Assembly (NCBI RefSeq): GCF_057098645.1
Contig: NZ_CM169472.1
DNA: 64,000 bases
Reading direction: 5' to 3' (one strand)
The position numbers and the translations under genes were made by a program. Below, piece by piece: positions 45,928 through 46,566 of the stretch; within the stretch, counting starts at the first letter, position 1; each line of letters opens with the position of its first letter. The notes below the pieces were generated by a model. The model was not told the DNA's origin and did not search any database. It was given only the letters and a program-made list of their open reading frames with translations.

Positions 45928-46344
45928 TCAAACCATCACCAGTGATAACTCTTTGCCAAGCGCCTTAGCCGCGAGCTGGACGGCGTCGATTTTTGTCGCA
46001 TGGTGCAAGTTAAATAAGCGAGTAATTTCCTGTTTAGGTTTGCCAATTCGCCTGGCTAACTCTTGCTGAGTGATTTCTGACTGTAAAAAAGCATTTAACA
46101 GCAATACCTTAGAGGCGACGCTCAAAGGTACTTCAATAAAATGATCGTGACTATTTAATGGCGAAGGTAACGGGATAAGCTCGTTATCTTCAAAATAAAA
46201 ATCAAATGCGGTCAGTAAAGCATCTTTTGCCGCTTCCATCGCTTCAGCGACAGTTTCGCCCTGGGTCAACGCTTCAGGGATATCCACAAAAGAAACCATA
46301 TAACCGCCTTCCGGCGCGGGTGTAAGAGTGACGGGATAACGCAT
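45928..46344 (-). CDS. hicB: HicB antitoxin
   Basis: Starts MRYPVTLTP at internal ATG; 24 bp downstream of hicA. Confidence 0.85.
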   Translation of the reverse strand: MRYPVTLTPAPEGGYMVSFVDIPEALTQGETVAEAMEAAKDALLTAFDFYFEDNELIPLPSPLNSHDHFIEVPLSVASKVLLLNAFLQSEITQQELARRIGKPKQEITRLFNLHHATKIDAVQLAAKALGKELSLVMV

Positions 46345-46389
46345 AATTTCGACTGTCTCTCGCATGTCATTAACCTTTTTAATTGGCGA

Positions 46390-46566
46390 TTAACTCAAAC
46401 CGAGTTGTTTCAGGATTGCTTTACGCAATGGTTCTTTAATCTCATCGCAGGGGTGACGCGGCATGACACTGCGCCTCCCATGAAACCTGAGTTTCAAATG
46501 GTTGCTGCCATTCGCTACATCGACGCCCTGAGATTCGAGCCAACGTCTGAACTCGCTTTGTTTCAC
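46390..46566 (-). CDS. hicA: HicA mRNA interferase toxin (58 aa, GTG start)
   Basis: Translates to VKQSEFRRWLESQGVDVANGSNHLKLRFHG...; below the ORF-track size cutoff. Confidence 0.85.
   Translation of the reverse strand: MKQSEFRRWLESQGVDVANGSNHLKLRFHGRRSVMPRHPCDEIKEPLRKAILKQLGLS

Follow-up and report, generated by a model that had tools for sequence, protein, structure and literature searches.

The hicA and hicB genes and their genomic surroundings

The minus strand of the window, i.e. of the whole stretch of 64,000 nucleotides that was analyzed (contig NZ_CM169472.1), carries a bicistronic arrangement in which the toxin gene comes first. The gene hicA is located at 46390-46566 and is followed by hicB at 45928-46344 or, if counted from an earlier ATG, at 45928-46365, so that the spacer between both genes is 45 (or 24) nt long. 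Almost certainly this locus is the hicAB operon of the E. coli chromosome, a type II toxin-antitoxin system and the orthologue of b4532/b1438 of strain K-12, and it is intact here. It was regarded as the intact, known operon because the proteins, the synteny, the reading frames and the regulatory region all match those of K-12.

The coding sequence of hicA begins with GTG and comprises 58 codons and the stop codon TAA; it encodes the mRNA-interferase toxin HicA. A preliminary description of this DNA had placed a 58-aa hicA with a GTG start on the minus strand, below a 60-aa cutoff, and the ORF at 46390-46566 confirmed this. The gene is missing from the ORF track because 58 aa falls short of that cutoff. 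HicA matched the Pfam family HicA_toxin (PF07927) with 30.9 bits (gathering score 27) over residues 5-57 and is identical in 58 of 58 positions to chain A of PDB entry 6HPB, which is named "mRNA interferase toxin HicA". Failure of the minus-strand translation to align with HicA had been set beforehand as the refuting outcome; the alignment instead gave 100% identity to the crystallized HicA of E. coli. The residue His23, the sole known catalytic residue of E. coli HicA (PMC8138530), is present in the translation of the window copy (...NGSNH23LKL...). A Shine-Dalgarno (SD) sequence, GGGAGG (46571-46576, minus strand), lies 4 nt ahead of the GTG and forms a duplex of -11.1 kcal/mol with the 3' end of the 16S rRNA. 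The hicA homologues of Arsenophonus and Aeromonas likewise have a strong SD sequence and a GTG start codon.

In the form annotated in RefSeq, hicB (45928-46344, minus strand) starts with the ATG at 46344 and comprises 138 codons and the stop codon TGA; its product HicB is the antitoxin and a transcriptional repressor. The longest form of this ORF (45928-46365) starts with the ATG at 46365 and encodes 145 aa, and the following residue numbers refer to this longer form. The N-terminal, partial RNase H-like toxin-binding domain HicB_lk_antitox (PF15919; residues 10-74, 46144-46338, minus strand) was found with 32.8 bits (gathering score 27) and the C-terminal HTH_3/Xre-type domain for DNA binding (PF01381; residues 95-141, 45943-46083, minus strand) with 31.4 bits (gathering score 23). 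The structure behind the C-terminal HTH domain is that of Manav et al. 2019, as summarized in PMC11594946. HicB of the window is identical to 6U0I_A over 145 residues and to 6HPB_B and 6HPC over 138 residues ("Antitoxin HicB"). The claim of a hicAB pair on the minus strand is thus borne out, since both products are identical to the crystallized HicA and HicB proteins of E. coli. A search with NCBIfam release 20 (E ≤ 0.01) yielded zero matches for HicA, HicB or a further 54-aa ORF of this region. PGAP names HicA and HicB despite this null result, and its naming must therefore rest on another type of evidence.

According to the RefSeq annotation, K-12 and O145 RM9872, the closest genome, share the gene order yncJ / hicA-hicB-ydcR with the window. 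In K-12 MG1655 the annotated order is sutR, rlhA, yncJ / hicA (b4532), hicB (b1438), ydcR and ydcS, with which the window and O145 RM9872 agree, and the RefSeq annotations of hicA and hicB in both K-12 and O145 RM9872 fall exactly on the locus described here. O145 RM9872 is 100% identical across 45928-46566. Of 5426 complete E. coli genomes, 5416 matched a stretch of 1.2 kb around the locus; strains of the O145:H28 type came out best (99.9%), with hicB, hicA, ydcR and yncJ annotated beneath the match. Compared to K-12, 1185 of 1201 nt are identical over yncJ'-hicA-hicB-ydcR'. From 46780 down to 46345, a part that takes in the regulatory region, hicA and the spacer, every base is as in K-12. 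Within the hicB ORF eight differences from K-12 occur, namely seven synonymous substitutions and the stop codon TGA in place of TAA. A consensus terminator scan found no terminator-like site between hicA and hicB.

Beside hicAB, three RNA elements were detected elsewhere in the window by comparison with Rfam. A match to the antitoxin RNA sok (RF01794; 61880-62031, plus strand; 97.5 bits, gathering score 59) indicates a type I toxin-antitoxin locus of the hok/sok type about 15 kb from hicAB. The small RNA RydC (RF00505) was found at 62591-62654 on the plus strand (89.3 bits, gathering score 48). Furthermore, a bacterial selenocysteine insertion element (SECIS_3, RF01989) is located at 6288-6346 on the minus strand (84.3 bits, gathering score 63); it implies a selenoprotein gene on this strand, probably for a formate dehydrogenase subunit.

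Two readings in which hicA would not be a functional gene in this strain have to be weighed against the one given above. In the first, an ORF on the plus strand (46405-46602, TTG start, 65 aa) would be the real gene and the 58-aa ORF on the minus strand an artefact. The plus-strand ORF is longer than hicA and the only member of the overlapping pair that passes 60 aa, and for this reason it alone was listed. It has no Pfam family match, starts with TTG and is unannotated in every RefSeq genome inspected, K-12 and O145 included, and the opposite strand codes for a protein of solved structure. In addition, the antisense frame is broken by stop codons in the Arsenophonus and Aeromonas homologues, in which the longest open antisense stretch amounts to 36 and 45 codons, respectively, in comparison to 83 in E. 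coli, whereas the HicA frame is conserved there. A plus-strand gene is therefore so improbable that it hardly needs to be considered, and the ORF, which the preliminary description had already called spurious, is an antisense shadow of hicA and no gene. In the second reading the locus would be a decayed, non-functional remnant, as in many other E. coli strains. Loss of the toxin at hicAB is indeed common among E. coli genomes, as described below; however, both frames of the window copy are intact, HicA and HicB are 100% identical to the functional proteins of K-12, and the promoter region, too, equals that of K-12. A remnant is for these reasons extremely unlikely, and the operon is regarded as intact in what follows.

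A practical consequence concerns the annotation of such loci. Small toxin genes, hicA among them, escape a fixed cutoff of 60 aa, and an antisense shadow ORF of greater length can be listed instead.

Loss of hicA among complete E. coli genomes

The 639-nt hicAB stretch was matched in 5382 of the 5426 complete genomes, and at least 80% of it was covered in only 4253. A 50-nt probe for the core of hicA (46414-46463) found a match in only 3442 of these genomes, so that about 36% of the complete E. coli genomes lack an intact hicA core. The window copy falls in the intact class.

In about 811 of the 5426 genomes, 80% or more of hicAB is present and the 50-nt core of hicA is missing. This pattern fits a deletion of 22 bp (46428-46449) with a TGCG microhomology at its flanks, by which hicA is frameshifted and hicB is left intact. 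The alignment of a single strain, 120899, showed the deletion itself, and there the gene is annotated as "mRNA interferase, frameshifted"; four further genomes among the matches listed showed the same span of 615 nt and the label "mRNA interferase".

Only a partial match to hicAB, with part of hicB kept, was obtained in 1129 of the 5426 genomes. Among the partial matches listed, most (six genomes) show the 37% coverage pattern of a 444-bp deletion (46167-46610), which removes the putative promoter P2, one half-site of the candidate operator, the entire hicA gene and the 5' portion of hicB. In the one genome in which the boundaries were checked, this deletion leaves a 3' remnant of hicB of 237 nt, which is annotated as a pseudogene.

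Not all hicA genes that are present are alike. Among the 3442 matches to the hicA core, 446 reached only 90-95% identity (3-5 differences per 50 nt), which points to a distinctly diverged class of hicA alleles in part of the species. For hicAB of H. influenzae it has also been reported in the literature that the toxin is often lost while the antitoxin is kept.

The start codon of hicB and the length of the spacer

With hicB starting at 46344, the spacer between hicA and hicB (46345-46389, minus strand) measures 45 nt; an alternative ATG (46365-46363) lies inside it and would reduce it to 24 nt. The preliminary description had given the organization as hicA-24 bp-hicB on the minus strand. Order and strand hold true, while the 24 nt (46366-46389) are correct only for the first ATG at 46365 and are probably not the real spacer.

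With fairly good confidence, hicB is taken to start at the ATG at 46344, which would give a protein of 138 aa and the spacer of 45 nt. The RefSeq annotation of K-12 and that of PGAP both use this start codon (417 nt, 138 aa), and the structure of the HicAB complex was obtained with the 138-aa form (6HPB_B). When HicB was compared to plasmid homologues by tblastn, most alignments started at query residues 6-10 and not at residue 1. Furthermore, five annotated homologous loci were read (Arsenophonus paIh2 and paPv2, Aeromonas pO23AP4, H. parainfluenzae and Variovorax). In four of them the hicB coding sequence starts with M-x-Y-P (MRYPV, MFYPA, MHYPV and MFYPA) and in Variovorax with MFSYPA, and all five starts align with M8 of the 145-aa form. 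The N-terminal extension MRETVEI has no counterpart in these homologues. The spacer of the Aeromonas locus is free of any in-frame start codon upstream of hicB; in Arsenophonus paIh2 an upstream ATG is present, but it encodes the unrelated sequence MFTDTT.

The other possibility is that hicB starts at the first ATG at 46365, with 145 aa and a spacer of 24 nt, or that both start codons are used; only the fine structure of the operon is affected by this. The ATG at 46365 opens the longest ORF, the sequence AAGG 8 nt upstream of it pairs marginally better with the anti-SD sequence (-3.4 vs -3.0 kcal/mol for the ATG at 46344), and a construct of 145 aa was crystallized as "Antitoxin HicB" (6U0I). 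Set against the two annotations, the 138-aa protein in the complex and the common start of the homologues at M8, this longer form appears rather unlikely, and the 138-aa form is preferred here. The strength of the SD sequence was also considered as a criterion for the start codon and was discarded as uninformative, as both candidates are weak; the homologues are essentially devoid of an SD sequence before hicB.

Choosing the longest ORF thus makes hicB seven codons longer than it is in the reference annotation and in the homologues. The start of hicB, and hence the length of the spacer, is probably the sole correction to the earlier reading of this locus.

Regulatory region, proposed function and comparison with known systems

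The divergent intergenic region between yncJ and hicA comprises 221 nt and contains three inverted repeats. The longest of them, with arms of 7 nt, is the perfect palindrome GTAAACA-N4-TGTTTAC at 46599-46616, with its centre 41 nt upstream of the GTG of hicA; the other two are palindromes of 6 nt. The palindrome emerged at a minimum repeat length of 6, and a search at a minimum of 8 gave nothing. By chance, the pattern GTAAACA-N4-TGTTTAC would be expected 0.15 times in the window, and it is unique there. In Aeromonas, the sequence GTAATCA-N4-TGATTAC is centred 42 nt upstream of hicA and a second, related repeat is found at 76 nt. A plasmid homologue from H. parainfluenzae has TAAACA-N4-TGTTTA upstream of hicA, between a consensus TTGACA and a consensus TATAAT. 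The Variovorax locus and both Arsenophonus loci showed no palindrome of the 7-4-7 kind. The half-site TAAnCA-N4-TGnTTA, which is common to E. coli, Aeromonas and H. parainfluenzae, suggests a conserved operator motif of HicB proteins with an HTH domain. The palindrome at 46599-46616 is read as the candidate HicB operator because its architecture and half-site are shared upstream of loci whose HicB proteins share this domain.

The published operator hicO is an inverted repeat at the promoter P2 and is bound by HicB dimers (PMC11594946, PMC10865869). From the sequence we infer that the palindrome corresponds to hicO and that the antitoxin-only promoter P2 lies at 46585-46593 (minus strand), where an extended -10 element, TGATATACT, was read by eye. 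The predicted transcription start of this candidate promoter is near 46578, about 7 nt past the -10 element and about 12 nt before the GTG of hicA. Because a start at this position leaves only about 12 nt before the GTG, hicA would not be translated from the P2 transcript. A scan for the sigma-70 consensus detected no promoter upstream of hicA, and its three promoter-like matches equal the number expected from shuffled sequences. The scan passed over the putative -10 element of P2 because no match to a -35 element accompanies it.

The remainder of the intergenic region (46617-46787, minus strand) is expected from the literature to contain the promoter P1 and a CRP-S (CRP-Sxy) site. A scan of the window for TGCGA-N6-TCGCA with up to 3 mismatches gave 271 matches, compared to 295 expected by chance. 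The sole CRP-S-like match in the region between hicA and yncJ (46770-46785, 3 mismatches) is thus at chance level.

A minus-strand ORF of 54 codons (46442-46606) is out of frame with hicA and crosses its start codon. Its ATG at 46606 falls within the candidate operator, and ahead of it stands a strong SD sequence, GGAGG (46616-46620, -10.8 kcal/mol). This frame is broken in Arsenophonus and stops after 14 codons in Aeromonas. For want of a family match and of frame conservation, the ORF was rejected as a gene, and its ATG looks like a side effect of the operator half-site (A+TGTTTAC). It is conceivable that the start signals around hicO are functional, the 54-codon frame acting as a decoy or upstream ORF on the P1 transcript that lowers the translation of HicA, and likewise that HicB occurs as two isoforms differing at the N-terminus (145 and 138 aa). 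Conservation backs neither the decoy ORF nor the two isoforms, and we consider this proposal very unlikely.

The function of the operon can be outlined from the work on the identical K-12 genes. HicA of K-12 is a small RNase with a dsRBD fold that cleaves mRNA independently of the ribosome, and its ectopic production is bacteriostatic (PMC11594946). Its toxicity and the neutralization by HicB were shown experimentally by Jorgensen et al. 2009, as cited in PMC11594946. HicB is a fully folded antitoxin which covers the catalytic His23 of HicA (PMC8138530), and its Lon-dependent turnover is known from the literature on these genes. Regulation by two promoters is described in PMC11594946, PMC8138530, bioRxiv 10.1101/330480 and PMC10865869.

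In the window copy, HicA would accordingly be expected to cleave mRNAs by means of His23 and so to arrest growth. The N-terminal domain of HicB would block the active site of HicA, and its C-terminal HTH domain would dimerize and bind DNA. Because the toxin gene precedes the antitoxin gene, two promoters would be used. The upstream promoter P1 with its CRP-S site (CRP-Sxy) would provide an mRNA for both HicA and HicB. The promoter P2, adjoining the start codon of hicA, would be repressed by HicB bound at the inverted repeat hicO, and an excess of HicA would lift this repression. As the 5' end of the P2 transcript would be too short for translation of hicA, only HicB would then be formed, and the excess of antitoxin could be restored.

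The hicAB operon described here is fully known already; for E. coli, the structures have been solved and a regulation by two promoters is on record. Biologically little is therefore added by this copy, since E. coli hicAB is a textbook type II system and the copy of the window is identical at the protein level. Modest by-products of this analysis are the comparative case for a half-site of the HicB operator and the count of hicA loss in complete E. coli genomes.

Among genomes, those of the O145:H28 type are closest to the window (100% over hicAB). The nearest known system is hicAB of E. coli K-12 itself (PDB 6HPB, 6HPC and 6U0I), which shares both proteins and the neighbours (rlhA, yncJ / hicA, hicB, ydcR) with the window. 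Starting 214 nt upstream of hicA and continuing through the hicB start, the DNA of K-12 equals that of the window. It differs by the seven synonymous substitutions in hicB, the stop codon TAA instead of TGA, and a few changes in the spacer between hicB and ydcR.

The loci on the plasmids Arsenophonus paIh2 and Aeromonas pO23AP4 resemble the window in that the toxin gene comes first and encodes a HicA of 58 aa with a GTG start codon and a strong SD sequence. The plasmid homologues also share a HicB of about 137 aa beginning with M-x-YP and a spacer of 45-50 nt. Like the window, the Aeromonas plasmid locus also shows a 7-4-7 palindrome at a distance of about 41 nt upstream of hicA. In contrast to the window, the Arsenophonus and Aeromonas plasmid loci have a stable GC-rich hairpin directly after the stop codon of hicA (-14.2 and -20.4 kcal/mol, respectively), whereas the spacer of the window folds with only -3.8 kcal/mol and forms no stable hairpin. 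In HicA^T B operons of IncI2 plasmids, a GC-rich hairpin in the spacer was described in a 2025 study as a hicA-specific terminator which raises the toxin:antitoxin ratio (PMC11878559). The predicted hairpins of the Arsenophonus and Aeromonas loci resemble this hicA-specific "noncanonical terminator" of IncI2 plasmids. The chromosomal operon of E. coli belongs to the hairpin-less, dual-promoter type; it was assigned to the hairpin-less type because the spacer of the window is devoid of the hairpin seen in the plasmid loci.

The regulatory logic is shared with mqsRA and with toxTA of H. influenzae, in which an upstream promoter likewise serves both proteins and a downstream promoter the antitoxin only, and toxTA is, like hicAB of E. 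coli, regulated by CRP-S and Sxy. MqsR and ToxT are RelE/ParE-like proteins, and these families are unrelated to HicA and HicB. Furthermore, the internal promoters of mqsRA and toxTA are located inside the toxin gene, whereas P2 of hicAB lies just upstream of the start codon of hicA.
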